A DNA stretch of 64,000 nt from NCBI GenBank assembly GCA_937960645.1, contig CALGPJ010000009.1, forward strand, positions 4,522 through 68,521, in the 5' to 3' direction. This DNA comes from an uncultured Spirochaetia bacterium. GTDB taxonomy: Bacteria > Spirochaetota > Spirochaetia > JABEVK01. Of this stretch, positions 22,120 to 60,438 are shown piece after piece. The notes below the pieces were generated by a model, which saw nothing but the letters and a program-made list of their open reading frames with translations, did no database searches and had not been told where the DNA came from. The position numbers and the translations under genes were made by a program. Each line of letters opens with the position of its first letter. Position 1 is the first letter of the stretch.

Positions 22120-23811
<1,692 letters not shown>

Positions 23812-23910
23812 TCAAATGTTTAGTAAATGGCAAGAGGTCGGGGGGGAAATGTTTGGCCATGGCGCGGCTTTCCAGCAAGAGACGCATCTTCTACATTCAT
23901 TCTTCGCCGC

Positions 23911-24046
23911 GCGCGAAGCACCCATCAAAAATTGCCTTAACCTGCGCAGCCCGTTCCGCGAAGCGGAATGGCGCGGTTCTTGCGCAAACGAGCGAAGCGA
24001 GTAGCGAGAACCGTGACAAAGGGCAAGTCAGGTTGAAGCAGTTGTC
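23911..24046. repeat. left copy of ~130-bp degenerate direct repeat bracketing vapBC
   Basis: shares gcgcgaagc...ATGGCGCGGTTcTTGC...GAGCgAAGCG...GTGACAaAG...GTTGAAGCaGTTGT with 24714-24829 (~65-70% identity by eye). Confidence 0.5.
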
Positions 24047-24055
24047 CGCTTTCTC

Positions 24056-24457
24056 TTATTCATAGATTTTAAGGTCCTCTGCAACTTTTTGAATGTGATC
24101 AAAATCGGCATCATTATGTAAAAGATATAAATTGTTTTCTAAGGCTGTTTGAACTATCAAAAGATCAATTGTACTTCTAATAGTGATTCCCAATTTTCTA
24201 CATTTTAAATTGAGTCGAGCAGCTTCAGTGTGTGATTCTAATCCATTCCGCAACTGATAGATTGGAATAGTTTCTAAATATTCTTTTAACACGTCAAATT
24301 CTTTCTGATCTTTCGAGCCTTGTAGTATCTCCTGATAAATAAGAGGACTAATCCCAAATGGTATTTTCCTTTTAATTATTTCATCAAGCAGTTTAACTTT
24401 AATATTATCAGTGCCTTTCAAATAATCAATCAAAACAGATGTATCAACAAGAATCAT
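24056..24457 (-). CDS. vapC: type II toxin VapC (PIN-domain ribonuclease)
   Basis: MILVDTSVLIDYL... PIN acidic residues (D5, E, D, D), low GC (~30%), 4-nt overlap with upstream antitoxin gene. Confidence 0.85.
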   Translation of the reverse strand: MILVDTSVLIDYLKGTDNIKVKLLDEIIKRKIPFGISPLIYQEILQGSKDQKEFDVLKEYLETIPIYQLRNGLESHTEAARLNLKCRKLGITIRSTIDLLIVQTALENNLYLLHNDADFDHIQKVAEDLKIYE

Positions 24458-24663
24458 GAGTCATTTCTCATTTTTTTATAATCATACTCATCAGAAAAAT
24501 GAATTAACCCTTTTAGTTCATTAAGATTTTTAACTCGATGATTTCTTACAAATTCTATTAAGGCTAACTCAACAAGATCTTTTTTTGTACGGATGTTTCC
24601 AGCATACTTAAAAGCTTCCTTAACTAAGTTATCATCCAGGACAATATTTGTACGCATATACAC
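24454..24663 (-). CDS. vapB: type II antitoxin VapB
   Basis: 69 aa, MRTNIVLDDNLVKEA N-terminus typical of VapB antitoxins; translationally coupled to vapC. Confidence 0.7.
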   Translation of the reverse strand: MYMRTNIVLDDNLVKEAFKYAGNIRTKKDLVELALIEFVRNHRVKNLNELKGLIHFSDEYDYKKMRNDS

Positions 24664-24670
24664 CTCTCAA

Positions 24671-24688
24671 TGTGTATAATAGTACACA
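24671..24688. promoter_or_regulatory. palindrome TGTGTAtaatagTACACA upstream of vapB (candidate vapBC promoter/autoregulatory operator)
   Basis: perfect 6-bp inverted repeat flanking a TATAAT-like core, 8 nt upstream of vapB start on minus strand. Confidence 0.4.
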
Positions 24689-24713
24689 TACAAAGAAACG
24701 TCAATATCTTGTT

Positions 24714-24829
24714 TGCGCGAAGCGTCAACCGTACATTTGCTGAACTTGCAACGCGTCTATGGCGCGGTTTTTGCCGAGCAAAGCGTCAACAAAAGTGTGA
24801 CAGAGAAGAGTTTAGTTGAAGCGGTTGTT
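24714..24829. repeat. right copy of degenerate direct repeat bracketing vapBC
   Basis: see left copy 23911-24046. Confidence 0.5.
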
Positions 24830-24943
24830 ATACGTGTTTTACATATGTTTAAGAAATTCTATAAATGTTACACATCTATACGGAGGTATTTGAGCTGCAA
24901 TCCAATTCGTTCCTCTTTTAACACTTTTTGTTCTATCCTTTTT

Positions 24944-25690
24944 TTATGTAGTTTTTAGTTTTAAAGGATCATCTAAAAAGAAATACGTAAATTCCTTATC
25001 TTCATTATCCAATTTTGTTCCATCTATCCATTTTTTTACTAGTGACTCGTTATTATCTGCGAATTCCATTAAATCATCTTTGAATGATTCTACTTCACCA
25101 GGTTTACATGAAATAATTCCTAATATTTTGGAGATGAAAGAAATACCTTCTTCTTCACCAGATTTTTTTGTGAAATATGGTGCGAAATATAAAGGATTAC
25201 TGGAAATAACATCACGCCGATAAATATTATAATCAAAATATTTTTTTAATTCTAATTCAACACTTAAATCTTGAACTAGTATTTCTTTTTTATTTCTCAA
25301 TTTATATCCCCTATGTATGAAAGTTTTAAAGTCCTTAATTAATTTCTCTTTATTTTTTGGTAAATTCTTATCATCAATTAATTCATCAATATCAGACCAA
25401 TAAATATTTTTAACAATTATGTCTTTTTTGTAATCATTGATTTGTGTGATGAAGCACAATACTTTCTGCGACTCATCTTGAAATGATTCTAAGTATTGTG
25501 TTCTTTGTTCGTCTACTTTATTTTTACCAATTTTTGCTTCAATTATTACATGAAAATTATCTCTCAATCGTATTTCAACATCGGTTCTACCTTCTTTACG
25601 TTTCTTTTCAATAATAATTTCAATATTTCTATAGTTTTCTTCTGTATTCTTATTTGTAATTCCTAAATATCGTAAAAACTTAAAAAGCAT
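24944..25690 (-). CDS. PD-(D/E)xK nuclease-like protein, low-GC, probably 5'-frameshifted (true start likely ATG 25815)
   Basis: motif D(VEIRLRDNFHVII)EAK resembles restriction-endonuclease-fold catalytic core; reading frame stays open upstream of ATG 25690 to 25801 without any start codon, while a GGAGG-aaaaa-ATG at 25815 opens a 14-codon ORF in the adjacent frame. Confidence 0.45.
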   Translation of the reverse strand: MLFKFLRYLGITNKNTEENYRNIEIIIEKKRKEGRTDVEIRLRDNFHVIIEAKIGKNKVDEQRTQYLESFQDESQKVLCFITQINDYKKDIIVKNIYWSDIDELIDDKNLPKNKEKLIKDFKTFIHRGYKLRNKKEILVQDLSVELELKKYFDYNIYRRDVISSNPLYFAPYFTKKSGEEEGISFISKILGIISCKPGEVESFKDDLMEFADNNESLVKKWIDGTKLDNEDKEFTYFFLDDPLKLKTT

Positions 25691-26211
25691 TGTTGAATCT
25701 TTTGATAGAATAAAAGCAAATGCTTTTGCTAAACCAGTTTCATCAAAACCATATAAGTAAAACGGATTTATTGAGTAATTTGTAATATAATACCACTTGG
25801 TTTAATGATCATTTTTTCCTCCGCCCGAAGGGCCCTTATAACACCATTTCGACCGTTCCGTGAATAATAACTCTGGCCTGTTCTTTTTTCCTGATAAAAC
25901 CAGATTCTCAAAGAATTATTACATCCCAAATATGCCAACAAAACTTTGTCAAGTTCCTAAGAAGTCCCAACGTACAAATTTCAGACCACGAAGGAGGTCC
26001 ACGAAAAGGCGGGAAGTTGGGTGGCCAGGCCCAGGGATACCGATGCCACCGGCAGGAAAGACAAAGGTCTCCGACACACCGTAAACGGCCATCGATTCCT
26101 CTTTGCCTTTACGCCGGCCAATCTCCTGGACTCAGTAGGGTAAGATTATTAACCCCAGAGAAAATGACCACCACACCAGCGAAAATTTTTCTAATTTTTC
26201 CTCCCCCGGAC

Positions 26212-26238
26212 TAAAGTTTTCACCCATCCTGCCGATAA
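26212..26238 (+). promoter_or_regulatory. sigma-28 (FliA) promoter TAAA-N15-GCCGATAA upstream of flaB1
   Basis: exact match to the class III flagellar promoter consensus TAAA N15 GCCGATAA, ~90 nt upstream of the flaB1 ATG. Confidence 0.6.
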
Positions 26239-26326
26239 TGACAAAGGAGGTCTAAACGGAATTAGGCCCCCGCCGGATGTTATCCGGTACCCCCATCATG
26301 ATTCTGAGTATTCACGGAGGAATACG

Positions 26327-27187
26327 ATGATCATCAACCACAACCTGAGCGCCATGTTCGCTCAGCGCCAACTCAAGGTCACCAACGGTGACGTCACCAA
26401 GGACATGGAGAAGCTGTCCAGCGGCTTCCGGATCAACCGGGCCGGCGACGACGCCTCCGGTCTGGCCGTTTCAGAAAAGATGCGGGCTCAAATCCGCGGT
26501 CTGAACCAGGCCAGCCAGAACGCCAGCAACGGCATCAGCTTCATCCAGGCCACGGAAGGATACCTCCAGGAAACCCAGGACATCCTCCAGCGCATTCGTG
26601 AGCTGGCCGTCCAGGCTTCCAACGGTATTTACACCGACGAAGACCGGATGCAAATCCAGGTCGAAGTCAGCCAACTCATCGACGAGGTGGACCGCGTCGC
26701 CTTCCATGCCCAGTTCAACGGCATGAACATGCTGACCGGCTCCTTCGCCCGAGACATTGGCGAAAACGTGCCCACCGCCAGCATGTGGTTCCACATCGGC
26801 GCCAACGTAGACCAGAGGATTCGGGTCTACATCCAGACCATGACCGCCGCGGCCCTGAGCATGCGCGGTCTCACCGACAACTCGATGCTGAGCCTTCGGA
26901 CCCCCGAATCGGCCAACCAGGCGATCATGATCCTGGACAATGCCCTGCAGATTGTCTCCAAACAGCGGGCTGACCTGGGTGCCTACCAGAACCGCCTGGA
27001 ATTCGCCGTGAAAGGTCTGGACATCGGCGCCGAGAACCTCCAGGCTGCCGAAAGCCGTATCCGCGACGCGGACATGGCCAAGCAGATGGTGGACTACACC
27101 AAGAACCAGATTCTCGTGCAGAGCGGTACCGCCATGCTCGCGCAGGCAAACACCCGCTCGCAGAGTGTCTTGCAACTTCTCCGATAA
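26327..27187 (+). CDS. flaB: flagellar filament core protein FlaB (spirochete-type flagellin)
   Basis: 286 aa, [15 protein letters not shown]...[27 protein letters not shown]..., conserved flagellin N and C termini, GGAGG RBS. Confidence 0.95.
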
Positions 27188-27197
27188 GGAGTTACTA

Positions 27198-27225
27198 TTC
27201 AGGGTGGGGGTCACTCCACCCTGAA
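27198..27225 (+). terminator. hairpin TTCAGGGTGG-gggtcact-CCACCCTGAA after flaB1
   Basis: perfect 10-bp inverted repeat 10 nt after stop; weak T-tract (tatgttcttt). Confidence 0.5.
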
Positions 27226-27402
27226 TATGTTCTTTGACATTCGTACCCTTCATCTTGCTCCCCAAGGGGGTTTTGACTGCCCGAACAGCCATTTCCCCCT
27301 TGGGCTGTGGCATTTGGTCTTCTTCCTGACGCGGAGGAAAGGGCGGTGCCGCTGAGCAAGAGGAGGCAAGGGATTGCCTCTCAAAAACAAAGGAGGGTAC
27401 AT

Positions 27403-28254
27403 ATGGTTATTAATCACAACATGAGCGCCATCAACGCCAACCGGGTTTTAGGGAATGTCCAGCTGGACCTCACCAAGAACCTGGAAAAGTTGTCCAGCGG
27501 GTTGCGGATCAACCGCGCCGGCGATGACGCTTCCGGTCTCGCGGTCTCGGAAAAGATGCGGGCGCAGATCCGCGGTCTCAACCAGGCCGAGAAAAACATT
27601 CAAAACGGCGTGAGCTTCATTCAGGCCACCGAGGGCTACCTTCAGTCCACCACCGACATCCTGCAAAGGGTGCGCGAACTGGCTGTACAGGCTGCCAACG
27701 GGATCTACAGCGCCGAGGACCGGATGCAGATTCAGGTCGAGGTGAGTCAGCTCGTGGACGAGATCAACCGTATTGCGGATCATGCCCAGTTCAACGGCAT
27801 GAATATGCTCACCGGCAGTTTCGCCCGCGGTGACGACGCTCAGGCTTCGGGTCTGCAACTGCAGGTCGGTGCCAACGTCGACCAAAACCGCCGCATCTAC
27901 ATCGGCAACATGAGGGCGGACGCTCTGGGAGTGGACAAGCTGCTCGAGCAGGAGTCGGCGCTGACCAGTGCGGAAGGGGCCAACAGGGCCATCATGCTGA
28001 TCGACGGCGCTCTCAAAGAGGTCAACAAGCAGCGTGCCGATCTCGGCGCCTACCAGAACCGCTTCGAGATGGCCGCCAAGGGCGTCGCCATCGCTGCGGA
28101 AAACCTGACCGCTGCCGAATCCCGCATCCGGGATGTCAACATGGCCACCGAGATGGTCGAGTACACCAAGAACTCGATCCTCAGCCAGTCGGGCACCGCG
28201 ATGCTGGCTCAGGCCAATGTCAGAAGCCGCTCGGTCATGCAGCTCTTGGGCTAA
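27403..28254 (+). CDS. flaB: flagellar filament core protein FlaB paralog
   Basis: 284 aa, [15 protein letters not shown]..., ~75-80% identical to upstream flaB; AAAGGAGGG RBS; the longer ORF from 27307 was trimmed. Confidence 0.95.
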
Positions 28255-28344
28255 ACCGTTAGAGATTTCTGGACGTTATTTCTAACGGAAGAACGAAGAA
28301 TTGGGGGGCCGCGTCACCCTCAATTTCTTTCATAAGGAGGCAGT

Positions 28345-28698
28345 ATGTCGATTGAAACCATCGGACTCACCAGCTCCCAGCTCTTCGCTAACCCGCGGCC
28401 GGCCAACGTCAAAGCCGCGGTGCCGGAAGCTGAGGTGGCACGCACCAACACGAGCGCGGAGGAGGCCGCAAAATTGAAGGCGGAAATGCGCCAGATCGTC
28501 GACGAACTTGCCAGGATGGCCAGGAGCTTCAATCGCCGTCTCGAATTTAGCATCAACGAAGACATTAACCAGGTCATCGTCAAGATCGTCGACCAGGATT
28601 CCGGGGAGGTCGTCAAGCAGATTCCTCCCGAAGACGTCGTCCGAGTGCACGCGCGCATCCGCGAGGCTATCGGTCTCCTGTTTGACCAAAAGATCTGA
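28345..28698 (+). CDS. flaG: flagellar protein FlaG
   Basis: 117 aa, position between flagellin and fliD, C-terminal ...INQVIVKIVDQDSGEVVKQIPPE typical of FlaG; AAGGAGG RBS. Confidence 0.65.
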   Translation: MSIETIGLTSSQLFANPRPANVKAAVPEAEVARTNTSAEEAAKLKAEMRQIVDELARMARSFNRRLEFSINEDINQVIVKIVDQDSGEVVKQIPPEDVVRVHARIREAIGLLFDQKI

Positions 28699-28700
28699 GC

Positions 28701-30704
28701 ATGGGCGACATCAGCATCCCGGGTGTCTCCAGCCGCTACAACACCCAAAAACTCATCCAGGATTTGCTCGATGTCGAAAAACGCAAACTCACCCGACTCG
28801 AAACCCAAAAAGCCGACCTGGAGGACACCAAACAGATTTGGCAGTCCTACAGCCGCCGCATGTCGGTGCTCCGGGATGCCGCGCGAAATCTTTTTGGATT
28901 TGAATCCCCCTTCGCCAACCGAATCGGCGAGTCCAGCCAGGCCAATGCAGTCAGCCTCAACCCCAACCGTTCAGCTGCCGAGGGCCAGTGGCGGATTAAG
29001 GTCCTCCAAATCGCGACGGCCGACCGGCTTTTGAGCGACGAGCTTCCTCTCGACGCCACAGCCCCGGCGGGCGATTACCGCTTCAAAGTGGGCGATCAGG
29101 AGGTAACGGTCAACTTTCGAGGCGGACGGTTATCGAACCTGGTGGAAGCCATCAACCAGCGCGGCCGGGACCTGATCCGGGCCAGCCTGATCCGCACCAC
29201 AGCCGACCGTCAAGTTTTAAGTATCGAGGCACAAAAGACCGGATCCCAAAACCGGCTGGAATTTTTTGGCGCGGCCCGGGACTTCGTTACCCAGGCAGGA
29301 TTAATGCGCCCCTCTCGGACCACCGATCAAACCATCCCCCTCACCGCTGAAACGACACGGACCCGCACGGCCCCGGAGTCGGTTACCCTTTCCGAAAATC
29401 AGCTCACGCTCCAGCCCCGTGCGCGTGCCGAGGTGCTCCTCAACCGGGATGTTAGCCGCGGCCTGGTGCTGGAGGTGGACATTCAGGCCGAGCGGCTGAG
29501 CCAGGAAGAAGTTCCCGCCCCCCCGCCGGGCCTGAACCTGGAGCCGCCGGGCGTGGCAGAATTCCAGGACATTCGCATTCGTAGCAACCCCCTGCGGACG
29601 GGTCTGCCGCGGTTCGAACCGCCGACCCCCCAACAGCCAACCAATGACCCGCGCGTGGGTCAGCTGCGCACCGCCGAACGGCAGATCGATCTGCCCAATT
29701 TTCCCCTGGAGGGCGGCTCGACGACGCTCAAGGTCCCTCTGGAGGGCATCGCCCGCCTGGACCAGCTGATCCTCGACAACCGTAACACCCACATGCGCTA
29801 CACCCTCACGCAGATCCGTCTGGTCGATCCGAACGCCCGCGGCGATCTCGAGCCAAAAAATGCGCAGACCACCGCCCAGGACGCGGTGTTCGAGATCGAC
29901 GGCGTGCGGGTAACCCGCCCCACCAATTCGATCAACGACGTGATTCCCAACGTCACCATCAACCTCTCCGATACGACACCGGCCCCGGCCACGGTCAAGG
30001 TCACCCCCGACTACGAATCCATCAAAAACGGCATCATCAACTTCGTGGGAAATTACAACCGTTTCATGCTGGAAACCCTGGTGCTGACCAGTCGCAACGA
30101 AGCCATCCTGAACGAGGCAAACTACCTCAGCGATGCCGAGCGGGAAGCCCTGAGAAAAAACATGGGGAAGTTCCAGGGGGATACCTCCCTGAACCAGCTG
30201 CGATCCAGTCTTCAGCGTTTCATGATGGAGCCCTACCCCTCGGGAGTTCCCAACATCAGCCTCCTGCAACAGGTGGGCATCAGTACCAACACCTCGGGGC
30301 GAACGAGCGGCTCCACCCCCGAGGCAGCCCGGTTACGGGGCTACCTGGAAATCAACGAGGGCCAGCTGGACCAGGCGATCCGGGAAAACCTTGTGGCCGT
30401 GAAAAATCTGTTCGGCATGGATACCAACGGGGATCTGGTCATCGATAGCGGGGCAGCCTTCCGGGTGGATGAATACATTCGCCCCTACGTCCAGACCGGC
30501 GGTTTCATCGCCAACCGCGTCAACACCCTGAACTCCCAGATCGATCGTCAAAACAGGGAAATCCGCAACTTCAACGATTATCTGGTTCGATACGAGCAGG
30601 ACCTCAAACGGCGATACGGGCAGATGGAAGGGGCCCTCAATCGTATGCAGGAAACCGGCCGAGCGATCGATAATTTTAGTAGACAAAACTCAGGCGGTAA
30701 TTGA
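28701..30704 (+). CDS. fliD: flagellar filament capping protein FliD (HAP2)
   Basis: 667 aa; conserved FliD N-terminal (ISIPGVSSRYNTQKLIQDL) and C-terminal (IRNFNDYLVRYEQDLKRRYGQMEGALNRMQ) coiled-coil regions. Confidence 0.85.
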   Translation: MGDISIPGVSSRYNTQKLIQDLLDVEKRKLTRLETQKADLEDTKQIWQSYSRRMSVLRDAARNLFGFESPFANRIGESSQANAVSLNPNRSAAEGQWRIKVLQIATADRLLSDELPLDATAPAGDYRFKVGDQEVTVNFRGGRLSNLVEAINQRGRDLIRASLIRTTADRQVLSIEAQKTGSQNRLEFFGAARDFVTQAGLMRPSRTTDQTIPLTAETTRTRTAPESVTLSENQLTLQPRARAEVLLNRDVSRGLVLEVDIQAERLSQEEVPAPPPGLNLEPPGVAEFQDIRIRSNPLRTGLPRFEPPTPQQPTNDPRVGQLRTAERQIDLPNFPLEGGSTTLKVPLEGIARLDQLILDNRNTHMRYTLTQIRLVDPNARGDLEPKNAQTTAQDAVFEIDGVRVTRPTNSINDVIPNVTINLSDTTPAPATVKVTPDYESIKNGIINFVGNYNRFMLETLVLTSRNEAILNEANYLSDAEREALRKNMGKFQGDTSLNQLRSSLQRFMMEPYPSGVPNISLLQQVGISTNTSGRTSGSTPEAARLRGYLEINEGQLDQAIRENLVAVKNLFGMDTNGDLVIDSGAAFRVDEYIRPYVQTGGFIANRVNTLNSQIDRQNREIRNFNDYLVRYEQDLKRRYGQMEGALNRMQETGRAIDNFSRQNSGGN

Positions 30705-30707
30705 ACC

Positions 30708-31562
30708 ATGATCTTGAAAATCAACGGGGAGGAAGTCTCCTGGTCCGATATGGAGGCTTCGAGCTTCGACGAGGCCCTGAAGGAGATCCAAAACTGGCTG
30801 CTAGCTCAGGGATGGAGACTGGTTTCCTACAGGATTCACCCGGAATCGGCCTCCCGCGGAGCGCCGGCCCTGTCCGAAATCGACGTGTTGGATATCGAGG
30901 CCGAGGTTTTGAATCAGACAACTCTCACCCACCTCGATATTTTAATCCTTTGGTTGGACAGCCTCGGTCACGGCCTTATATCCCGTAACGAGACTGTCCG
31001 GCAAAATTGCCGGGAAGCGGCGGATCAGATCATCAAAAGTGCGGACCTGCTTTTTCATAACGGCATCAACATCCCCGTGAACCTGATCCGAAACCTGGTT
31101 CACGAAGTCGATTCCGGCTGGACCGAACTCCAGAAAAATCGGCTGGAGATCGACCAGCTTCAATCCCAGCTGGAACGCCTGAAAACCATGCTCCTGTACC
31201 CCCGCGAATCCATTCAAAAACTAGTGGATTTGATCAGCTACAGCTTATTTCAGACGGATGGACTTCCCCAACTCGTCTACGCGCAGCGTTACTCCGAAGC
31301 CATGGGTCTGATCGTCTCCATCCTGGACCACTACTCCCTTCTTGTGTTCGGTCTTGCCCAAATCACGACTCCTGACGAGATGAAACAACTGCAAACCGAG
31401 TGCCTCCCCTTTTTCAACGAACTCAGCGAGGCCATGGAGCGGATGGACTGGACCTATATCAGCGACCTCTGGGAATACGAAATTCATCCCAGGCTGACAA
31501 GGCTGGTAGAATTGATTAAATTACAGGCGGGGATAGAACAAAATGCGTCTCAAGGGTCTTGA
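30708..31562 (+). CDS. hypothetical protein in flagellar fliD operon (position where fliS is found in many bacteria)
   Basis: ATG 4 nt after fliD stop; 284 aa, helical, no recognisable FliS signature. Confidence 0.45.
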   Translation: MILKINGEEVSWSDMEASSFDEALKEIQNWLLAQGWRLVSYRIHPESASRGAPALSEIDVLDIEAEVLNQTTLTHLDILILWLDSLGHGLISRNETVRQNCREAADQIIKSADLLFHNGINIPVNLIRNLVHEVDSGWTELQKNRLEIDQLQSQLERLKTMLLYPRESIQKLVDLISYSLFQTDGLPQLVYAQRYSEAMGLIVSILDHYSLLVFGLAQITTPDEMKQLQTECLPFFNELSEAMERMDWTYISDLWEYEIHPRLTRLVELIKLQAGIEQNASQGS

Positions 31563-31809
31563 TCAGGTCAACAAAAACATCGACGGTCATATCTTTTACC
31601 GCAACGATTACACCGCCATCGCGCGCTTGATCGGGTTGGACGGCCGGGAATCTGCCAAAAAGATCAAGTTCAGCATCGAGATGGCCCCCACCGGAAAGAA
31701 AGACATCAAGGTCGAATTCCTCGAAAAGCCTGACTTTCCCGTTCTCCATCTCCTCAAAAGCATCCGGGAGGAGATCCAGGAACTCGACCGCCGGGGTGCC
31801 TTGCTCTGA
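31543..31809 (+). CDS. hypothetical small protein (88 aa), overlaps preceding gene by 20 nt
   Basis: ORF only. Confidence 0.3.
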   Translation: MRLKGLDQVNKNIDGHIFYRNDYTAIARLIGLDGRESAKKIKFSIEMAPTGKKDIKVEFLEKPDFPVLHLLKSIREEIQELDRRGALL

Positions 31810-31835
31810 ACGTCGAATTTCGCTCGCTCGAGGAT

Positions 31836-32210
31836 ATGCAAAATTGGGCCGATTCCTGGTCCTGGAGGCTCCTGGGCGGTGGGGTGGTCGGACTGTCCGG
31901 CCCGCTGGGAGCCGGAAAAACCACCCTTGTCGGGTATCTGGCCCGGGCGCTTGGGTCGCAGGACCTGGTGAGCAGCCCCACCTTCGCCCTGGTTCACGAA
32001 TACGAGGGCAAACTCCCCATCGTGCACATGGACCTCTATAGGCTGGGAAGCCCCGAAGAGTTTTTGGAACTCGAGGAGACCTACATCCGACCGAAAGCCC
32101 TGGTTCTCATCGAGTGGCCGCAGCGGGCCGGTCCCTACCTGCCCCCCCTCCTCTACCGCTTGGAGCTTTCGTTTCACCATCAGGGAAGGCGGCTGGAGAT
32201 CCTGCCGTGA
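31836..32210 (+). CDS. tsaE: tRNA threonylcarbamoyladenosine biosynthesis ATPase TsaE (YjeE)
   Basis: P-loop GPLGAGKTT, ~125 aa, followed by tsaB. Confidence 0.8.
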   Translation: MQNWADSWSWRLLGGGVVGLSGPLGAGKTTLVGYLARALGSQDLVSSPTFALVHEYEGKLPIVHMDLYRLGSPEEFLELEETYIRPKALVLIEWPQRAGPYLPPLLYRLELSFHHQGRRLEILP

Positions 32211-32821
32211 CGCTTCTGGCCATCGACACCGCCACGCCGCGATTGATTCTCGGTTTGTCCCACCGCGGAGCAACGCACTCCCGACTTGTCACCCCTGCCA
32301 TGACACACGGAGAGGTGGCCCTTCAGGAGGTTGCGATTCTTTTTGAAGCCGCGGGTTTGGATTTGCGCTGTCTCGAGGGGGTGGTGATCGGCAGCGGACC
32401 GGGTTCCTTCACCGGCACGCGGGTCGGGTGGGCCAGCGCCCTGGGCCTGGCCGAGGGTCTGGGGATACCGGCCGTGGCAGTCAGCAGCCTGGACGCCCTG
32501 GGATGGTGCGACCGGTCCAGCGGCCAGCGCGGTTGGGCCATCATCGATGCTCGTCGCGGGCGCTACTACGCGGCCTTGTATCAGAACTCCCGACGCCTGG
32601 GAAACTACCGGGATAGCCATCTCGGCGGGCTCTTCGCCGAATGCCCCCGATTTTTCGGCCCCGAATTGCCGAGCGCCCTTCCCCCTGGCGCTATATTTGA
32701 CCGTTGGGAGAACTGGGCCGAGGGACTATTGGCCCTCGGCCGGGAAAAGTTCCAACACGGAGAGGTCATTCAACCCGGCCAGGGGCCACTCTACCTCCGG
32801 CCCGGGGTCGACTCACCTTAG
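32207..32821 (+). CDS. tsaB: tRNA threonylcarbamoyladenosine biosynthesis protein TsaB (YeaZ)
   Basis: LLAIDTATPRLILGL...GSGPGSFTGTRVG motifs; GTG start overlapping tsaE stop (GTGA). Confidence 0.75.
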   Translation: MTLLAIDTATPRLILGLSHRGATHSRLVTPAMTHGEVALQEVAILFEAAGLDLRCLEGVVIGSGPGSFTGTRVGWASALGLAEGLGIPAVAVSSLDALGWCDRSSGQRGWAIIDARRGRYYAALYQNSRRLGNYRDSHLGGLFAECPRFFGPELPSALPPGAIFDRWENWAEGLLALGREKFQHGEVIQPGQGPLYLRPGVDSP

Positions 32822-33802
32822 GTTGAATTGCCCCTCCTCGTTGAATTGTAAGGGGAGGGGCTTGTCCAGCACATCGCGTGGCAGCTGGAGCGAGGAAGAA
32901 CCCGTGATCCGGAAGGTCCCCGTGCCCCGCTGGAAGGCGTTTCGGATCGATTCATTCAAACTCTTGGAGGAAAAGGTGTTGGTGACCCGCGTGACAGTCT
33001 TGGTACCCGAGGTGTTGACCTGGCTCGAGCGGCCGCTCACGAGGGCGGTTCCATCCACGATCAGCGTAAACTCGAGGGAGGGGAAGCTGATCGCCGCCCT
33101 GGACTGGTTCTCTAGCTCGATATCGAAACTCACCCGGAAGGGCAGGTCGAGGTCTTCGGGACGGATGACCGGTTCCGCAGGTCGGCCAGTCAAGATGTTG
33201 TTGAGCATGTTGACCACGCGCTGGGGGGCCGCCGAGATGCTGGCCCGCTGGAGCGCCTGGGTCACCTCCTGCTGGCTGGGGGGCTCCACCTTGAAGCCCA
33301 CAATGGCGACCCGCGGCTTGATGGCGGGGATGCGTACGTCGAACCTGGCGTCAAAGTCGAAGGTGGCGGGCACCCCGGGGAGCCTCGGGAGGGGGATGGA
33401 AGCCCGGATATCCGCTTTGGTGTTAAGGTAGTCCTTTTCGACGTAATTGCGTACCGTGTTGATCAGGGCCTCGTAGGGCAGCACCACCTTGAAGGTGTTG
33501 GTGGATTGACCGTTGGCAGGCACCTCGAAGCGTTCCGTTGTCCGGGCCTCGAACACCTGGGTCCCCTCCACGCTGTAATTGACCCGGATCGACTCTAGGG
33601 GAAGCTTGGCGGGATAGGGGTTGCGGATGGCGACATCCATGTCGAAGGTGATGTCCCGCAGGCTGATACTGACCGGCACGAAGCGGGTCACGCTGGCCGT
33701 CGGCAAGGGGGGAGCACCGAGATTGAGCTGACCGTGGACGGAAGTGACCGCCACGAAAAGCAACATCAAAAAGGTCCAAAACCTGATTTTTCGCGAATTC
33801 AT
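32813..33802 (-). CDS. hypothetical secreted protein (signal peptide; tentatively LEA_2/WHy-like beta-sandwich repeats)
   Basis: ATG 33802 with GGAGG RBS, MNSRKIRFWTFLMLLFVAVTSVHG signal peptide; domain call is tentative. Confidence 0.45.
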   Translation of the reverse strand: MNSRKIRFWTFLMLLFVAVTSVHGQLNLGAPPLPTASVTRFVPVSISLRDITFDMDVAIRNPYPAKLPLESIRVNYSVEGTQVFEARTTERFEVPANGQSTNTFKVVLPYEALINTVRNYVEKDYLNTKADIRASIPLPRLPGVPATFDFDARFDVRIPAIKPRVAIVGFKVEPPSQQEVTQALQRASISAAPQRVVNMLNNILTGRPAEPVIRPEDLDLPFRVSFDIELENQSRAAISFPSLEFTLIVDGTALVSGRSSQVNTSGTKTVTRVTNTFSSKSLNESIRNAFQRGTGTFRITGSSSLQLPRDVLDKPLPLQFNEEGQFNLR

Positions 33803-33846
33803 AAAACCTCCACTGGTGGGAATATACCACGATTTTACGGGATATT

Positions 33847-35307
33847 CTACTTTTGAACCAATGGGGAAATGAAAAGATCGGCCGGTTCTGCCGACCATGT
33901 CGTGGATTCCTGATTTGACCGGAACAGGGCCCAGTTGTGATGTTCGGTGTACCCCTCGAGTTCTTGACTGTCCAGGGGGTCGTAGGAGCCCTCAGGATTG
34001 ATCCAAATTGCGCCGCCCTGTTTGCGGATGGGCAGAAAATGGGGGCGGTGGCTTTGGCCCTGGTAAAAACGGAACCCCACACCGGATCCTTGCTGAGACA
34101 AACGCAGGGCCAGACACCGGGCGACTGCGGGCATTTCGGTGATGTTTTGCCAGCCATCCTCGTTCAGGGCTCGGATCTCATATTTTTCGAATAGACCGAA
34201 TCTTCCCAGGGGCAGTTCCCAGGGCGCCCAGCCGGTGATTCTTACCGCGCGACGAAACACGGGCCAGCGAATGCTGAGACTGACGCTGAGCTCATCCGTA
34301 CGGTCCGTCAGAAGATAATCGACCACCAACCTTCCGGGCTGCAAAAAGAGGGGGGATTCCGCCACCAGCGATTCACGCAACCCCCACTCGTGGTCGCCCT
34401 CGATGGCCACACTGCTCACACCCACGAAAAAGATCTTCCGCCCCTCGATTTCGATCCAACTCTGGACCCTGCCCGTTTTTTGATTTTTTGCCGGTCCCCA
34501 GGAAAATTCGGCAAGCCGGCCCTGTTGAAAGCGATACACCAGGTCTTTCACGGCCAATTGTGCCTCGCCCTGCATGCTTGCAGCCAGGTTTCTCTTCGCC
34601 ACCCCCTTGATCGAGGAGATGTAGGCATCCTCGAAGCAGTGGGAATGGGATGTCGTGACCGGCGGGGACTTCAACAAGTCCTGGGCGGCCTGGGGCTGGC
34701 AGCGTCGATAACCGAGTTCAACGGACTCTTTTTTTTGACTGAGTTGTAAGGTAGGCAGAACCTCCTCGAGAATATCGGCGGACTGTCTGTTGGCCTTCAG
34801 CTCCTCCCAACCGATCCACTCGATGCCGGAAAAAGTTTTCTCGTCCCAATAACCACCCTGCCAGTGGCAGAAGAAGACAGCTACTCCCCGGTTTCCCGGC
34901 AGCGGGGGTGGCGTGCTGATGTGACGTTGAAGGGAGTTTTGCCGAAACGGGTTCAGGTCGCGAGCCTCGAGTTTGAAATAAAGCCCGCTCTTCCTCCCTA
35001 CGAGAAAGTGTCGATCGCCCCGAGAAACGAGGGTGATAAAATCGGCCTGGACCAGTGCTGGGGAAATACCACTCAAGGGCGGCGGCAGGTAGATCACGCC
35101 GCCAGGGACCGCACAATCGCGCTCGATTTCTTCCTGAAACAGATAACCATGGGCGAGTCCCAACCTTCCGGGTGGGACCTGGAGCCATCCCTGGGGAATT
35201 CCGTCCCCATTCCCCACCATGATCCCCCGGGGGATGAACCGCAAAGATTCGGGAAAGGTTGGAGAATCCTGAGCAAAAACCACGCACAGAGCCTGTTGCC
35301 GAAGCAT
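33847..35307 (-). CDS. hypothetical protein (possible metallophosphoesterase-like); start uncertain
   Basis: ORF only; weak GDHEWG / GNGDG phosphoesterase-like motifs. Confidence 0.35.
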   Translation of the reverse strand: MLRQQALCVVFAQDSPTFPESLRFIPRGIMVGNGDGIPQGWLQVPPGRLGLAHGYLFQEEIERDCAVPGGVIYLPPPLSGISPALVQADFITLVSRGDRHFLVGRKSGLYFKLEARDLNPFRQNSLQRHISTPPPLPGNRGVAVFFCHWQGGYWDEKTFSGIEWIGWEELKANRQSADILEEVLPTLQLSQKKESVELGYRRCQPQAAQDLLKSPPVTTSHSHCFEDAYISSIKGVAKRNLAASMQGEAQLAVKDLVYRFQQGRLAEFSWGPAKNQKTGRVQSWIEIEGRKIFFVGVSSVAIEGDHEWGLRESLVAESPLFLQPGRLVVDYLLTDRTDELSVSLSIRWPVFRRAVRITGWAPWELPLGRFGLFEKYEIRALNEDGWQNITEMPAVARCLALRLSQQGSGVGFRFYQGQSHRPHFLPIRKQGGAIWINPEGSYDPLDSQELEGYTEHHNWALFRSNQESTTWSAEPADLFISPLVQK

Positions 35308-35357
35308 GCCTTATTTTTTCTCTAATTTCTCTGAGTGTCAAGCAAAAAATCCGGCCT

Positions 35358-36446
35358 TTACCGGGGATGGATCGTCACTCTGGGGCAGTGCGTTTTAGGA
35401 TCGACTTTCTGATCTTTCCGGTAGACGACCAGGTCCCCCCAGGCCGCCTGCCCTGCGCCGCCCACCAATAGCCCCTCGCGGGAGCAAAGGTAGCAGCCGA
35501 CTCCATCATTCAATGGGATCTCGCCGCTGATGATGCGGGCCAGTGAGGGAGGATGGGGTCGAGGGAGGCCGCGCTGAACATAGAGGTAGCTCAACGTGTT
35601 GGATTGTTTTTCCGTTCCAAGCTCACGGGCCAGGTCGCGCATCCAGGCCGGGAGGTCCGCGGGGGCGGGGAAATGGCAGAATCGATCGGAAGACGTGCGG
35701 CCTGGGGCCGGGCAGTTTCCCGAGTGCGGGCAGGGAGCCAGGGGCCAGGCCTCGGAAGCGATCAGGTGGGCACGCAGCTGGACCAGGCGCCGGACAGCCA
35801 GACGGGTCCCGGGTTCCACGACCAGAATCCGGGCCTGGGGTTGGGCATCCCGAAGCAAAAACCTGGCCACGGCCTCCTCGGATTCGGACCATTCGTTCAG
35901 AGCGTGCGAGCTCACCACCAGATCGGCCTTGCGGCGGATGGCCGTACCCAACCGTTCCGGGATTTGGGTAAACTTCCACTCGGTGTGCGGGTCGGCGGCG
36001 GCGATGACTTCAAAGATTTTTCGGCCGGCCCTCAGGGCCGCGGCTTGGGGTTCCACCAGGGTCCATCCCAGGGGCGCTCGGCGCCAATCCGGATAGAGGA
36101 GCCATGCCGCCAGCGGAAGGGTCCAGGGACCGCAACCGTAGTCGGTTATTTGGGCGGGGATGGGGCCAGGTAAGCCCGGCAGGAGACCGGAGAGCTTCAG
36201 AAGGTTGAGCGGCAGGTACCACCAGAGGTAGCCCTCCAGCATCTCGGGGTGGCCCAGGTATCCTCGAAGACGCTGAGATTTTTCTACGGTAAATCCCTCC
36301 ATCAATCGAGCCAGGTTGGCCAGAAGCCGCCCCCGGTCCGAATGGCTCAAACCCGATCGTTTCAATAGCTCGGGCCATCGATCCAAAACCTGAGTCAACG
36401 TCGGGGGCTGGTCAAACAGGGGACTTGAGGCTATTGTAGAAGGCAA
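35358..36446 (-). CDS. Rsm22-family class I SAM-dependent methyltransferase (start uncertain)
   Basis: ITDYGCGPWT SAM-binding motif, C-terminal Cys-rich region; the listed start is TTG and overlaps the divergent Dabb start. Confidence 0.55.
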   Translation of the reverse strand: MPSTIASSPLFDQPPTLTQVLDRWPELLKRSGLSHSDRGRLLANLARLMEGFTVEKSQRLRGYLGHPEMLEGYLWWYLPLNLLKLSGLLPGLPGPIPAQITDYGCGPWTLPLAAWLLYPDWRRAPLGWTLVEPQAAALRAGRKIFEVIAAADPHTEWKFTQIPERLGTAIRRKADLVVSSHALNEWSESEEAVARFLLRDAQPQARILVVEPGTRLAVRRLVQLRAHLIASEAWPLAPCPHSGNCPAPGRTSSDRFCHFPAPADLPAWMRDLARELGTEKQSNTLSYLYVQRGLPRPHPPSLARIISGEIPLNDGVGCYLCSREGLLVGGAGQAAWGDLVVYRKDQKVDPKTHCPRVTIHPR

Positions 36447-39165: not shown

Positions 39166-39325
39166 CGCCCTAAACAAAAACACAGCCCGACTTTTTTTTC
39201 AATCGTGGCTTGCCGCGAACATGGTTTCCGATTAACTTTATATATCGTCCGATACGGAGATGTTGGCGGCGCCGATTCTGGGCCACTTTTTTCAACGATT
39301 ACGTAGAGTTTCAGAGAGGTGGAAC

Positions 39326-40600
39326 ATGAATACTGATACCATCGGTCTTAGCGACATCGCCCTGCACTTGCCGGAGCCGCACATCGAACTGGAAAAAATC
39401 GTTTCGGAACGGGTGAAACAGGACCCCTCTCTCGAGAGGCACCTGGAACGGGCCCTCAAAGTCACGGGCCAGCGCGGGCTAAGGTTCACTCAAATCTTCG
39501 AGGACACCGCTACCATGGCGGCCCAGGCTTGTTTGAACCTCACCCAACGCGGCCAACTGAAACGAGACCATGTGCGCTTTTTGACCATCGGCACCGAGAC
39601 CGGTCTGGACATGAGCAAGGCCGCCTCCAGCTACGTTCTCGGTATGATGGAGAAGGCAGGTCTCCCCTTCCCCAAAAACCTCAGCACCTTCCAGGTTCAG
39701 CACGCGTGTGCGGGCGGAACCCTCAGCATGATCACCGTGGCCGGCTTCCTCCAGGCCGCCAGCCTGAACGGGGACACTGCCGTGATACTGACGAGCGACA
39801 TTGCCCGCTACCCGACCCCCAGTACCGCCGAAATCACCCAGGGAGCCGGAGCGACGGCCCTCATGATCAAACGCAATCCGGACCTCATCCGCTTCGATCT
39901 GGGGAGCGTGGGCTTTTTCAGCAAGGACACGGATGACTTTTTCCGCCCTCTCGGGAGCCCCGTCGCCATGGTCAAGGGCGGCTACTCGGTCCAGTGTTAT
40001 CACGAGAGCCTCATCGCTGCCTTCGAAGACCACTGCGATCGGCTGGGTGTCTCCCCCTCCGAGGAGTTAGCCTCGATCGATATCTTCGCCCTGCATGTGC
40101 CCTATTCGCTCCTGCCCGTCGGTGCCATGGAAAAGCTGCTGGCGAAGTATCTGGGAATGGACAAGGACACGGCCGATGCCTACCTCAAAGAAAAAGGATT
40201 TTTCCAGAGCGTGTATCCCACCAGCGAGGTCGGCAACATCTACACGGGTTCCCTGTTCCTGGGTCTGGCATGGACCTTAAAAGATCGCCACCAGTACTTT
40301 GGAGAATCGATCGTCGGCAAAAAGGTCATGATGGCCAGCTACGGCAGCGGCAACACCATGGCGGTCCTAACGGGAACGGTTGCCCCCAACGCACCAAACG
40401 TCATTCAGTCCTGGGACCTCGAGGGGGTAATGCGCCAGAGCTACGAGGCCAGCTTCGAGGAGTATGTGGAATGGACGCAGGCGTATCAAAGTCGACCCAT
40501 CCTGGCCGAGGCCATCGAAAAGAATCAACTCAAGCCCGGGAGTTTTTACCTGAAAAACCTGCGCGAAGACGGCTATCGTGAGTACGACTTCCGACAATAG
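39326..40600 (+). CDS. mvaS: hydroxymethylglutaryl-CoA synthase
   Basis: thiolase-fold condensing enzyme, active-site region HACAGGT, first gene of mevalonate operon; ATG 39326 with AGGTGG RBS. Confidence 0.8.
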   Translation: MNTDTIGLSDIALHLPEPHIELEKIVSERVKQDPSLERHLERALKVTGQRGLRFTQIFEDTATMAAQACLNLTQRGQLKRDHVRFLTIGTETGLDMSKAASSYVLGMMEKAGLPFPKNLSTFQVQHACAGGTLSMITVAGFLQAASLNGDTAVILTSDIARYPTPSTAEITQGAGATALMIKRNPDLIRFDLGSVGFFSKDTDDFFRPLGSPVAMVKGGYSVQCYHESLIAAFEDHCDRLGVSPSEELASIDIFALHVPYSLLPVGAMEKLLAKYLGMDKDTADAYLKEKGFFQSVYPTSEVGNIYTGSLFLGLAWTLKDRHQYFGESIVGKKVMMASYGSGNTMAVLTGTVAPNAPNVIQSWDLEGVMRQSYEASFEEYVEWTQAYQSRPILAEAIEKNQLKPGSFYLKNLREDGYREYDFRQ

Positions 40601-41627
40601 CACAGGGATTTCGCGGCGCAAGGCTCGTCACATCGAGGTCTGCGTCGCACGCACAGACCGAACCATCGAGTCCGGCAGTACCGGATTCGAGAGCATCAAA
40701 CTTCCCCATCGTGCCCTTCCGGAGATATCCTTCGACGAAATCGATCTCGATACTTTTTTTATTGATCGGATGGTCAAGCTCCCGATTTTCATCTCCTGCA
40801 TGACCGGCGGTTCGAGCGAAGGCCACCGAGCCAACAAGGAACTGGCCCGCGCGGCGCAGGAGCTGCGAATCCCCGTGGGAATGGGCTCCCACCGCATCCT
40901 GTTCGAACATCCCGAGTTGTTCGAGCATTTTTACCTGCGACCCCTGGCTCCCGATGTCCCCATCCTCAGCAACATTGGAGCGGTGCAGGTTCGGGACATC
41001 CCGCACGCCGACCTCATCGAAATGAATAAGCGCCTGGAGGTGGACGCGCAGGTTATCCATCTGAATCCCGCACAGGAACTGTTTCAGGAGAGCGGCGACC
41101 GCGACTTTCGGAAGCTGCGCGAGGCCATCGCCCGATTCATCGAAGCCTCCCCCCTACCCGTCATCGTGAAGGAAACCGGTTGCGGGCTCAGCCCCCAGGA
41201 GGCCCTGGATCTGGCCGGCCTGGGTGCCGCCTACGTGGACGTCGCCGGCCACGGTGGAACGAGCTGGATCCTGGTGGAGGCGGCCCGAGGCGAGGAGCAG
41301 GAATGGCAGGAGGCCCAGGATTTCCGGGACTGGGGCTGGCCCACGGCGGAGATCCTGCTCCATCTCCGGGGAGAGCCTCGCCTCGAGGGGCGGCTTCTGG
41401 CCAGCGGCGGCATCCGTACTGCCATGGATGTCGCTAAGGCCCTGTCCCTGGGGGCTTCACTGGCCGGCATGGCCCTTCCCCTGATTCGAGCAGTGATCGA
41501 AGGGGGATCCGCAGCGGTGGTCAGCCTGATTCGGCAAATCGAAAAAAACCTTCGGCGCGTCCTGCTCCTGACGGGATCGCGCACTCCCGGGGACCTTCGC
41601 CGGCTACCGATCCGCATTGTGAAGTGA
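40578..41627 (+). CDS. fni: isopentenyl-diphosphate delta-isomerase type 2 (FMN-dependent)
   Basis: RKARHIEVC N-terminal motif, CMTGGS, TIM-barrel FMN enzyme pattern; GTG start. Confidence 0.85.
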   Translation: MSTTSDNSTGISRRKARHIEVCVARTDRTIESGSTGFESIKLPHRALPEISFDEIDLDTFFIDRMVKLPIFISCMTGGSSEGHRANKELARAAQELRIPVGMGSHRILFEHPELFEHFYLRPLAPDVPILSNIGAVQVRDIPHADLIEMNKRLEVDAQVIHLNPAQELFQESGDRDFRKLREAIARFIEASPLPVIVKETGCGLSPQEALDLAGLGAAYVDVAGHGGTSWILVEAARGEEQEWQEAQDFRDWGWPTAEILLHLRGEPRLEGRLLASGGIRTAMDVAKALSLGASLAGMALPLIRAVIEGGSAAVVSLIRQIEKNLRRVLLLTGSRTPGDLRRLPIRIVK

Positions 41628-41634
41628 GTTGCCC

Positions 41635-42768
41635 ATGGCAGGAGAACTCCCCCCGTCGTTTCGAAAGATGCCGGCCCAACGGCGGCGCGAGGTCCTGCTT
41701 CAGCTTTACCCTCAGTCCGATACCGAGCCTACCCAAGACCTCGATTGGGCGGACCGCCTCGTCGAAAACGCCTTCGGTTGGCGCCCCCTGCCCCTCGGCC
41801 TGGTCCCCGACTTCCCGGTAAACGGCAAAACCTACCACCTTCCTCTTGCCACCGAGGAGCCCTCGGTCATCGCCGCCGCGAGCTTCAGCGGCCGCATGCT
41901 GGCCCGCCACGGCGGTATTCGCGCCGAGGCCACACCGGCCATCCTTCGCGGCCAACTCTTTCTCGAGGGGGCCGATTTCGGCCGCTGGCCCGAGGTCCGT
42001 GTTCGGATCCAGGACCTGGCCGCCGAGGGGCTTGTCAGCATGAGCCGGCGCGGCGGCGGGCTTCGGAAGGTGGAGGGCGAACAGCTGGCCAACGGTTTGA
42101 CCCTCCTGACCTTTTGGGTCGATGTGTGCGACGCCCAGGGGGCCAACGTCGTGAACACGCTTTTAGAGGGGCTCGTGCCCAAAACAGAAGAACTTCTGGG
42201 TGGGAAGCGGCTCATGGCCATCCTGTCCAACAACAGCCCCGAGCGCCTGGGTCGCGCCGAGTTCTCGATTCCTATCGAGCACCTGGCCCGTTCCGGCTTC
42301 AGCGGCCCGGAAATGGCCCGCCGCCTCTGCCTTGCCAGCGAGGCCGCCCAACTGAGCACCGACCGGGCCGTCACCCACAACAAGGGCATCATGAACGGCG
42401 TCACGGCCCTGGCCCTGGCCACCGGCAACGACACGCGGGCCCTCGAGGCGGCCGTCCACGCCTACGCCGCCAGGAACGGGGGCTACCAGCCACTCAGCCG
42501 CTACCGCTCTGAAAACGGCCAATTGATCGGCATGCTGGAAATGCCCCTTCCCCTGGCCACAGTGGGCGGTGGTACCCGATCGCTGCCGCAAAGCGGACTG
42601 ATCTGGGATATCCTGGGAATCACGCGGGCGACCGAGCTCATGGAAGTGGCCGCTGCCCTCGGCCTGGCCCAAAACTTCGCGGCCCTGATGGCCCTCTGTG
42701 CCGAAGGCATCCAGAGCGGCCACATGAAACTTCACCAACGCCGGTTGACCGGGGACGAGAAACCATGA
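41635..42768 (+). CDS. mvaA: hydroxymethylglutaryl-CoA reductase (class II)
   Basis: ENAFGWRPLPLGLVPDFPVNGKTYHLPLATEEPSVIAAAS matches class II HMGR core. Confidence 0.85.
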   Translation: MAGELPPSFRKMPAQRRREVLLQLYPQSDTEPTQDLDWADRLVENAFGWRPLPLGLVPDFPVNGKTYHLPLATEEPSVIAAASFSGRMLARHGGIRAEATPAILRGQLFLEGADFGRWPEVRVRIQDLAAEGLVSMSRRGGGLRKVEGEQLANGLTLLTFWVDVCDAQGANVVNTLLEGLVPKTEELLGGKRLMAILSNNSPERLGRAEFSIPIEHLARSGFSGPEMARRLCLASEAAQLSTDRAVTHNKGIMNGVTALALATGNDTRALEAAVHAYAARNGGYQPLSRYRSENGQLIGMLEMPLPLATVGGGTRSLPQSGLIWDILGITRATELMEVAAALGLAQNFAALMALCAEGIQSGHMKLHQRRLTGDEKP

Positions 42769-59931: not shown

Positions 59932-59932
59932 G

Positions 59933-60418: not shown

Positions 60419-60438
60419 GATCTAGGTCCCGACGTCCA

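Follow-up and report, generated by a model that had tools for sequence, protein, structure and literature searches.

An attC site is an imperfect hairpin; IntI, the integron integrase, cuts and rejoins its folded bottom strand at the GTT in the R' box. Cassettes on which IntI acts in this way are excised as circles and reinserted. The described systems closest to the locus reported here are the 'reverse' integrons of Treponema and attC-site clusters in which an integron integrase is lacking (CALINs, as defined in IntegronFinder). Three routes to a CALIN are recognised, namely loss of intI, the splitting of an array by rearrangement, and insertion by IntI at secondary attG sites (5'-GWT-3') (PMC4889954; bioRxiv 10.1101/2022.09.11.507474). 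Small CALINs and single attC sites lacking integron integrases (SALINs) have been attributed to attG insertion (bioRxiv 10.1101/2022.09.11.507474), and CALINs with two cassettes form the commonest size class (1362 of 2961). We analysed a stretch of 64,000 nucleotides of contig CALGPJ010000009.1 from an uncultured Spirochaetia bacterium, hereafter the window, in which a low-GC segment of 2.1 kb, with 24-33% GC, lies between groEL and the flagellin gene flaB1. This island contains a vapBC toxin-antitoxin (TA) pair, a nuclease-like open reading frame (ORF) and two degenerate direct repeats. In all likelihood positions ~23840-25990 hold a piece of an integron cassette array without its own integrase, that is, a fossil two-cassette CALIN in a high-GC spirochaete chromosome. 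On the minus strand the order is a boundary G/TTATAA, the nuclease gene, its attC, vapBC with a promoter, the attC of vapBC, the start of a third cassette, and the groEL promoter (Table 1).

The identification of the repeats rests on a family of sites outside the window. Scanning of the metagenome collection with the window-derived pattern GCTTCAACN{30,60}GCAARAACCGCGCCAT returned 26 contigs, 24 of which carry one attC family of 111-131 nt in arrays of 30-40% GC. An alignment of 49 distinct external sites (A2) reveals a hairpin R''-L''/L'-R' of 35 pairs, 16 of them with compensatory changes; it comprises R''/R' (TAACA with TGTTA), L''/L' and inner stems, and the L''/L' stem has an unpaired C in GCTT-C-AAC. 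The unpaired C corresponds to the protruding G of the bottom strand. The covariance model made from these 49 sites with the window copies left out (R1) finds exactly two matches in the window, both on the minus strand and 674 nt apart. The first, at 24052-23922, reaches 70.2 bits (E 2.9e-17) and the second, at 24835-24726, 54.4 bits (E 8e-13); each aligns over the full length of the model. Applied as a control to 1.19 Mb from 80 other spirochaete loci, R1 gave nothing significant (best 16 bits). Compared pairwise within the window, the two repeats are only 68% identical over 78 nt (E ~5e-4); their significance derives from the external model. The hairpin, too, is visible only from the family alignment, and folding of each repeat by itself as single-stranded DNA was uninformative (z-scores -1.0 to 0.1). 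When the boxes were read by eye on the plus strand, the registers disagreed; the orientation was fixed as minus by the covariance model. A first-pass annotation of the sequence had pointed out the repeats at coordinates that differ from the R1 matches by a few bases. They are real, the shared motifs that it quoted are present (GTTGAAGCrGTTGT is the reverse complement of the R''-L'' arm), and its view that they are recombination-type, mobility-related sequences travelling with genes is borne out.

Several observations link the sites to the Treponema-type 'reverse' integrons. In oral cassette arrays the spacers are attC sites with the pattern GTCTAAC-ACCCGCTTCAACCTGAC...AATGCAGGTTAAGCGAATGTTAGAT, and the arms equal the published T. 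denticola attC primers SUPA3 CAGGTTGAAGCGGGTGTTAG, SUPA4 CCGCAAATGCAGGTTAAGCG and MARS2 GCAATGTCAGGTTGAAGC (PMC4909258 S1 Table); the window sequence GTCAGGTTGAAGCAGTTGT is an example of a match to these primers on the conserved arms. The arms shared with the Treponema arrays are CTAACA..CGCTTCAACCTGAC for R''-L'' and GCAGGTTAAGC..ATGTTAG for L'-R', and the hairpin architecture and length range of Treponema attC agree with the 110-131 nt of the window sites (PMC3607928). The attC of vapBC is 83% identical over 148 nt to a site of another contig (L101:191-321), including a stretch first mistaken for an insertion, and that of the nuclease cassette is 80-83% identical to sites in L099, L116 and L122. 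The family is associated with an integron integrase: contigs L122 and L105 encode a 350-aa protein matching TIGR02249 with 489.9 bits (cutoff 265), after which come, in one orientation, the attI junction, a cassette with a glyoxalase gene and an attC that belongs to the window's family. This layout is the 'reverse' arrangement described for T. denticola (PMC4909258). By homology, then, both repeats are integron attC sites, and they belong to the attC family of the Treponema-type 'reverse' integrons.

Both attC sites start 4 nt past a stop codon, that of vapC (24056 versus 24052) or that of the nuclease gene (24839 versus 24835), so the right-hand repeat is part of the nuclease cassette and not of vapBC. 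The repeats thus do not bracket vapBC as a single unit, as the first-pass annotation had it, but are the 3' attC sites of different cassettes, the left one of vapBC and the right one of the nuclease gene. The same annotation had offered an islet for defence or addiction, with joint action of vapBC and the nuclease, where the repeats would be the ends of a MITE-like (miniature inverted-repeat transposable element) or att-duplication element moving them as one unit. The adjacency of a TA module and a nuclease in low-GC, repeat-flanked DNA invites such a view, as does the modification-dependent restriction enzyme architecture of intact relatives of the nuclease. We nevertheless consider it very improbable, given that the repeats are same-orientation attC sites of separate cassettes and that the window holds no further repeat copy, terminal inverted repeats or target duplication. 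A MITE or another dispersed repeat was rejected: there are only two copies in 64 kb and none in other contigs of the same samples, and the copies found elsewhere are all cassette-associated attC sites. The TA and nuclease genes are adjacent because cassettes stack in arrays and not because of a defence pairing.

The state of the nuclease gene and the lack of any PADLOC match also speak against a functional islet. The 248-aa ORF (24944-25690, minus strand) was rightly annotated as PD-(D/E)xK-like, but it is only the middle part of a disrupted gene of 324 codons. A 5-bp insertion after codon 8 (~25792) shifts the frame, and an in-frame TAA at 24944-24946 cuts off the last 35 codons, which still continue in frame. 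Additional 1-bp deletions are found in other strains at 25163 and 24963. The gene is disrupted in every strain compared, and no active enzyme is expected from the window copy. Contrary to the first impression that the protein has no family, a database search returned 142 homologues, mostly of 325-335 aa, with named sources including Bacteroidota genera, Cloacimonetes and Ignavibacterium. The closest (P0001, 324 aa) is intact and 86% identical at the amino acid level. With PDDEXK_4 (PF14281) the window fragment scores 19.2 bits, below the cutoff of 22.3, whereas the intact P0001, P0004 and P0055 score 24-31.5 bits. Residues D76, E90 and K92 are invariant in 61 homologues, and the window copy retains TD...EAK. 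The AlphaFold model of P0001 (mean pLDDT, the predicted local distance difference test score, 85.8) has two domains, of which the C-terminal one is PUA-like. For the intact family a PD-(D/E)xK nuclease joined to a PUA-like (ASCH/EVE/YTH-like) domain is thus predicted, an architecture of modification-dependent restriction enzymes that would suggest such a function for the intact family and not for the window copy. In the modelled combination of nuclease and PUA-like reader it resembles type IV restriction enzymes such as McrB (N-terminal EVE/YTH-like domain), VcaM4I and MspJI/AspBHI. It differs from them in that no solved relative emerged when PDB sequences were searched with a profile of the family and that PADLOC models gave no match for VapC, VapB, the 248-aa ORF or P0001 at E up to 0.01, besides the window copy being a pseudogene.

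The gene for P0001 lies on short contigs, of which one bears the label human oral metagenome. There, small genes with no relation to one another (for an ankyrin protein, a HAD hydrolase, Amidase_2, DUF1706 and a vapBC pair) form arrays on a single strand, with attC sites between them. In the oral arrays the nuclease cassette thus adjoins other genes than in the window, those for Amidase_2 and a HAD hydrolase, which again argues against an islet of paired function. Over 1040 bp the nuclease cassette is 90.3% identical in nucleotide sequence to the intact oral-metagenome cassette, and this homology spans exactly the region from the R' box (GTTATAA, 25842-25836) to the L'' arm (24815). The segment 25842-24726 is therefore one cassette, and its similarity to the oral copy indicates that it was acquired horizontally from a low-GC cassette pool. 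In one oral array a second, different attC-like palindrome (CGTTCAACGGGGCGGCGG...CCGCCGCCCCGTTAGAT; L008:82-245) separates the short attC from the nuclease cassette; this may represent a cassette that lacks an ORF, or another type of attC within that array.

Both window sites are degenerate. AAC is invariant and GTT is required in the 49 external sites; the vapBC attC has GAC and TTT instead, and the nuclease attC has an intact AAC together with GTA. Non-standard pairs number 6 of 35 in the vapBC site and 9 of 35 in the nuclease site; 44 intact sites average 0.8 such pairs, with at most 3, and intact sites score 84-126 bits. Because their R-box triplets are mutated, the sites are probably inactive. 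From these triplets, the lost stem pairs, the frameshifted and nonsense-mutated nuclease gene and the lack of an intI in the window, we infer that the element is immobile and decaying, an inactive remnant. One could imagine instead a CALIN that is still live, with an IntI encoded elsewhere in the genome, or on an incoming mobile element, excising and shuffling both cassettes. For half of all CALINs the genome also encodes an IntI, and divergent attC sites are tolerated by integrases (PMC4889954). Moreover, the window hairpins keep 29 of 35 (vapBC) and 25 of 35 (nuclease) stem pairs, both retain the unpaired C of GCTT-C-AAC (column 18 of A2), and the genome evidence covers the 64-kb window. Nevertheless, with the mutated triplets, with scores of 54-70 bits that stay below those of intact sites, with an arrangement that is identical in three strains, and with no intI in the 64 kb, residual activity of this kind seems unlikely to us.

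The Pfam annotation shows no integron integrase within ~9-10 kb on either side of the island, no Phage_integrase domain was found in 30 further window ORFs, mostly of at least 200 aa, and tblastn with the L122 IntI gave nothing in the window (best E 2.8). A complete integron consists of intI, attI and at least one attC; here intI was not found in the window and attI would be present only as a possible remnant. The island, being without a nearby integron integrase, falls under the definition of a CALIN.

The composition of the island agrees with a foreign origin. GC content is 24-38% over ~24050-25990 versus 51-66% in the flanks (in windows of 300 nt), in a spirochaete genome that is otherwise 55-65% GC, and no other kb-scale bin of the 64 kb falls below 50%, so that the island is the sole kb-scale low-GC stretch. 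GC at third codon positions (GC3) is 0.22 in vapC and 0.18 in the nuclease ORF versus 0.54-0.83 in nearly all other long ORFs. The GC drop over ~24056-25950 and the foreign nature of the DNA, both already remarked upon in the first-pass annotation, thus hold. An abrupt jump in composition in a metagenome-assembled source could also arise if an integron fragment of a low-GC organism had been spliced into a high-GC contig. A matching arrangement is however present at 99.3-99.6% identity in three further assemblies (two from ENA, one from Logan) that stem from other samples and were made with different assemblers, and the Logan unitig assembly is continuous from the nuclease gene to flaB1. Differences between strains are spread over island and flanks alike, the island co-diverging with its surroundings, and the island is ~10% diverged from the nearest low-GC copy, with private mutations. 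Because the arrangement recurs across samples and strain differences span island and flanks, an assembly chimera is very unlikely indeed. An Rfam scan of 23600-26400 gave chance-level matches only.

The vapBC cassette is the intact part of the island. The PIN toxin and VapB antitoxin genes recognised at first sight are supported by domain matches (Table 1); they overlap by 4 nt (ATGA), and a PIN toxin gene following a coupled VapB gene is the organisation of a VapBC type II TA system. In public assemblies vapB is called as 67 aa. The palindrome located 3' of the promoter-like site is a candidate vapBC operator, since type II TA systems usually autoregulate. VapC is 49% identical in amino acid sequence to a VapC inside an oral cassette array (L008), and composition points to a horizontal origin of vapBC from the low-GC cassette pool. 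Between strains 0-2 differences are found in 608 bp, both of them non-synonymous in one strain. TA cassettes have been proposed to stabilise neighbouring DNA in chromosomal integrons (PMC13108822). By analogy, selection or toxin-antitoxin addiction has probably retained vapBC, and this would also keep the remnant where it is.

Table 1. Coordinates of the features of the island, of its borders and of a related complete integron (window positions unless a contig is given)
Feature	Position	Strand	Evidence or description
groEL	22120-23763/23769	minus	
groEL promoter-like site TTGCCA-17-TATATT (host)	23805..23833	minus	promoter scan; host side of left boundary
Third-cassette stub	23837..23921	minus	5' leader with GC mini-hairpin, 23921 to ~23890; no match in relatives
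attC of vapBC cassette	23922..24052	minus	131-nt type, degenerate; R'' CGGAC versus CTAAC, R' TTTTTGA versus TGTTAGA
vapC, intact PIN toxin gene	24056..24457	minus	PF01850 6.5e-12; NCBIfam NF047959 137.7 bits, cutoff 80
vapB, intact antitoxin gene	24454..24657	minus	PF09957 7e-17; alternative GTG start 24663
Imperfect palindrome, 19-nt, candidate operator	24645-24690	minus	3' of promoter-like site
vapBC promoter-like site TTGACG-17-TATTAT	24704-24676	minus	promoter scan
attC of nuclease cassette	24726..24835	minus	110-nt type, degenerate; R'' ATAAC intact, R' GTA versus GTT
Pseudogene, 324-aa PD-(D/E)xK (PDDEXK_4) + PUA-like nuclease	24839..25812	minus	alignment to P0001
Nuclease cassette 5' boundary	25836..25853	minus	R'-type box GTTATAA (25842-25836) preceded by GTCGAAA (25853-25847)
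Junction segment, 339 bp	25843..26181		AT-rich 25843-25990, GC-rich 25990-26181
flaB1	26327-27187	plus	
Complete small 'reverse' integron	L122:445-2522 (same in L105)	minus	intI, attI ATTG/TTAGCC, glyoxalase cassette + second small ORF, one attC

At its left border the island meets host DNA that is recognisable by comparison. The stretch with the groEL promoter is conserved with a relative (L127), and homology stops at ~23836. Of the stub beyond it, ~30 nt resemble the leader of the family, (G/A)GAC followed by a GC mini-hairpin, and ~50 nt before the groEL promoter are unassigned. Within the latter, ATGGCGCGGCTTTCCAGCAA at 23859-23878 is a 20-nt partial repeat resembling the inner 3' arm of attC, AACCGCGCCAT; it may be a scrap of a third attC (23878-23859) or chance. 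At the right border, upstream of the nuclease cassette, the model detected no third attC, whether complete or half, even with filters off. The box GTCGAAA is one of the published S2 (L) boxes, and GTTAT-type boxes are the S1 (R) boxes, of oral Treponema attI (PMC4909258 S3). The local alignment of this boundary to the attI of L122 was equalled by 6 of 500 shuffles, and GTCGAAA-TGGT-GTTATAA (25853-25836) may, judging from these similarities, be the remnant of an attI simple site. The adjoining junction segment has no match among the compared loci and no coding similarity to IntI; the conserved upstream region of flaB1 starts at 26182.

It is worth mentioning that cassette leaders are alike in most of the family (L097-L122, L007-L016). 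Directly after the R' box comes (G/A)GAC, then a short GC-rich hairpin with a TTCG-type loop, and a GGAG ribosome-binding site; for 26 of 48 cases the hairpin is predicted at -6 kcal/mol or below. In the window such leaders lie at 25835-25815, 24725-24708 and 23921-23890 on the minus strand. The leader hairpin could be part of the recombination site, or a signal for translation or transcription.

The host species is absent or masked in the reference-genome collection, in which a search of 185,579 genomes with a lineage-specific 234-aa protein gave no match. FlaB1 is at most 79% identical to anything in these reference species, and a FlaB1 search returned 80 spirochaete loci; groEL lies within 10 kb in none of these, nor does any contain vapBC or the nuclease gene. 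For the 234-aa protein only two homologues were found, on contigs of ~1.2 kb that are of no use for gene context. Three metagenomic relatives (L123, L124, L127) were compared. Their FlaB1 is 96-97% identical to that of the window and their DNA only 67-78% identical, with the gene order Rsm22, flaB1-flaB2-flaG-fliD-...-490aa, groEL-237aa. In all three, the 160-bp spacer between the 490-aa gene and groEL, upstream of groEL, is without cassettes and without attC matches. This is the empty site that the first-pass annotation suggested looking for. Compared with these relatives, the window block flaB1-flaB2-flaG-fliD-DUF8042-tsaE-tsaD-LEA_2-486aa (26182-35307, 9 kb) is inverted. The cassettes sit exactly at the groEL-side junction of the inversion, and the other junction (35307-35358) is clean. 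FlaB matches at 84-89% identity are a paralogue next to pgi and not orthologous loci, which leaves the inversion unpolarised. At 10001-10861 of L128/L129, another large contig of the same two samples, there is a third flaB paralogue with 85% identity to FlaB1, again next to pgi and presumably from the same organism.

Two further regions of the window may be recorded here. A mevalonate-pathway cluster at 39260-45504 is syntenic with the relatives and comprises genes for 3-hydroxy-3-methylglutaryl-CoA (HMG-CoA) synthase, an FMN-dependent dehydrogenase (likely type 2 isopentenyl diphosphate isomerase), HMG-CoA reductase, diphosphomevalonate decarboxylase and a GHMP kinase. At 58216-60530 there are two overlapping long ORFs without Pfam match, with GC3 of 0.54 and 0.31 and a local GC content of 52-54%.

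How could a two-cassette remnant have reached this place? Horizontal transfer from a low-GC pool brought the nuclease cassette and, to judge from composition, vapBC into the high-GC spirochaete. By a first route, a once complete integron would have lost its platform, the attI-like GTCGAAA-N4-GTTATAA box being a hint of it; by a second, IntI would have catalysed insertion at a secondary genomic site. The attC sites and the nuclease gene would then have decayed, and the self-promoted vapBC would have persisted and held the remnant in place. A bolder version of the first route would see here a beheaded Treponema-type 'reverse' integron of a distantly related high-GC spirochaete, with its attI (25853-25836) at the junction of the 9-kb inversion that juxtaposed groEL and the flagellin operon. 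If this were true, integron-associated recombination or breakage would have caused the rearrangement and removed intI, and vapBC would then have kept the stump. We regard this scenario as speculative and rather improbable.

Some points weigh against our interpretation of the island as an inactive cassette-array fragment. In neither site are the AAC and GTT triplets both intact, and under a strictly functional definition each is an ex-attC. The closest relative of the vapBC cassette in another array is only 49% identical in amino acid sequence (L008), and the evidence for purifying selection on vapBC is thin. For the attI remnant there are a 7-mer match and a weak alignment, and for the inversion the ancestral direction is not polarised. 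Finally, as the integrase search covered the 64-kb window, an IntI elsewhere in the genome, and hence residual mobility, keeps a small probability.

Compared with the Treponema arrays, among which we considered T. denticola ATCC 35405 and the oral cassettes as well as T. succinifaciens and T. brennaborense with their longer attC sites (115-132 nt), the window has in common the low-GC cassettes, self-promoted TA cassettes, and ORFs directly followed by their attC. It differs in that intI was not found, that there is no definite attI, that there are two cassettes, and that the R boxes are mutated. Its host has 55-65% GC, and its site is next to groEL and the flagellin operon instead of the Treponema integron locus. 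With known CALINs it shares the two-cassette size, and integrase loss, rearrangement and secondary-site insertion are all compatible with the window case. Unlike in these, decay is documented by broken R boxes and a pseudogene, and the element coincides with an inversion junction. The superintegron of Vibrio cholerae also holds single-cassette type II TA systems with their own promoter among promoterless cassettes (PMC13108822). Here the system is a VapBC (PIN) pair in a spirochaete, in a two-cassette remnant and not in a large array, and a stabilising role would be assumed by analogy.

The island leaves the current understanding of integrons unchanged. What was a vaguely defined accessory island can now be annotated precisely as two integron cassettes with named attC sites. 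By-products of the analysis are a 49-sequence alignment and a covariance model of a long attC family, as well as a widespread cassette-borne family of proteins with predicted nuclease and PUA-like domains. As far as the homology of its sites and cassettes indicates, the Treponema-type pool supplies cassettes also to spirochaetes that are far removed from the low-GC lineages in which such integrons were described. The locus would also be a natural example of CALIN decay, in which the recombination sites and a passenger gene decay and the TA cassette survives.

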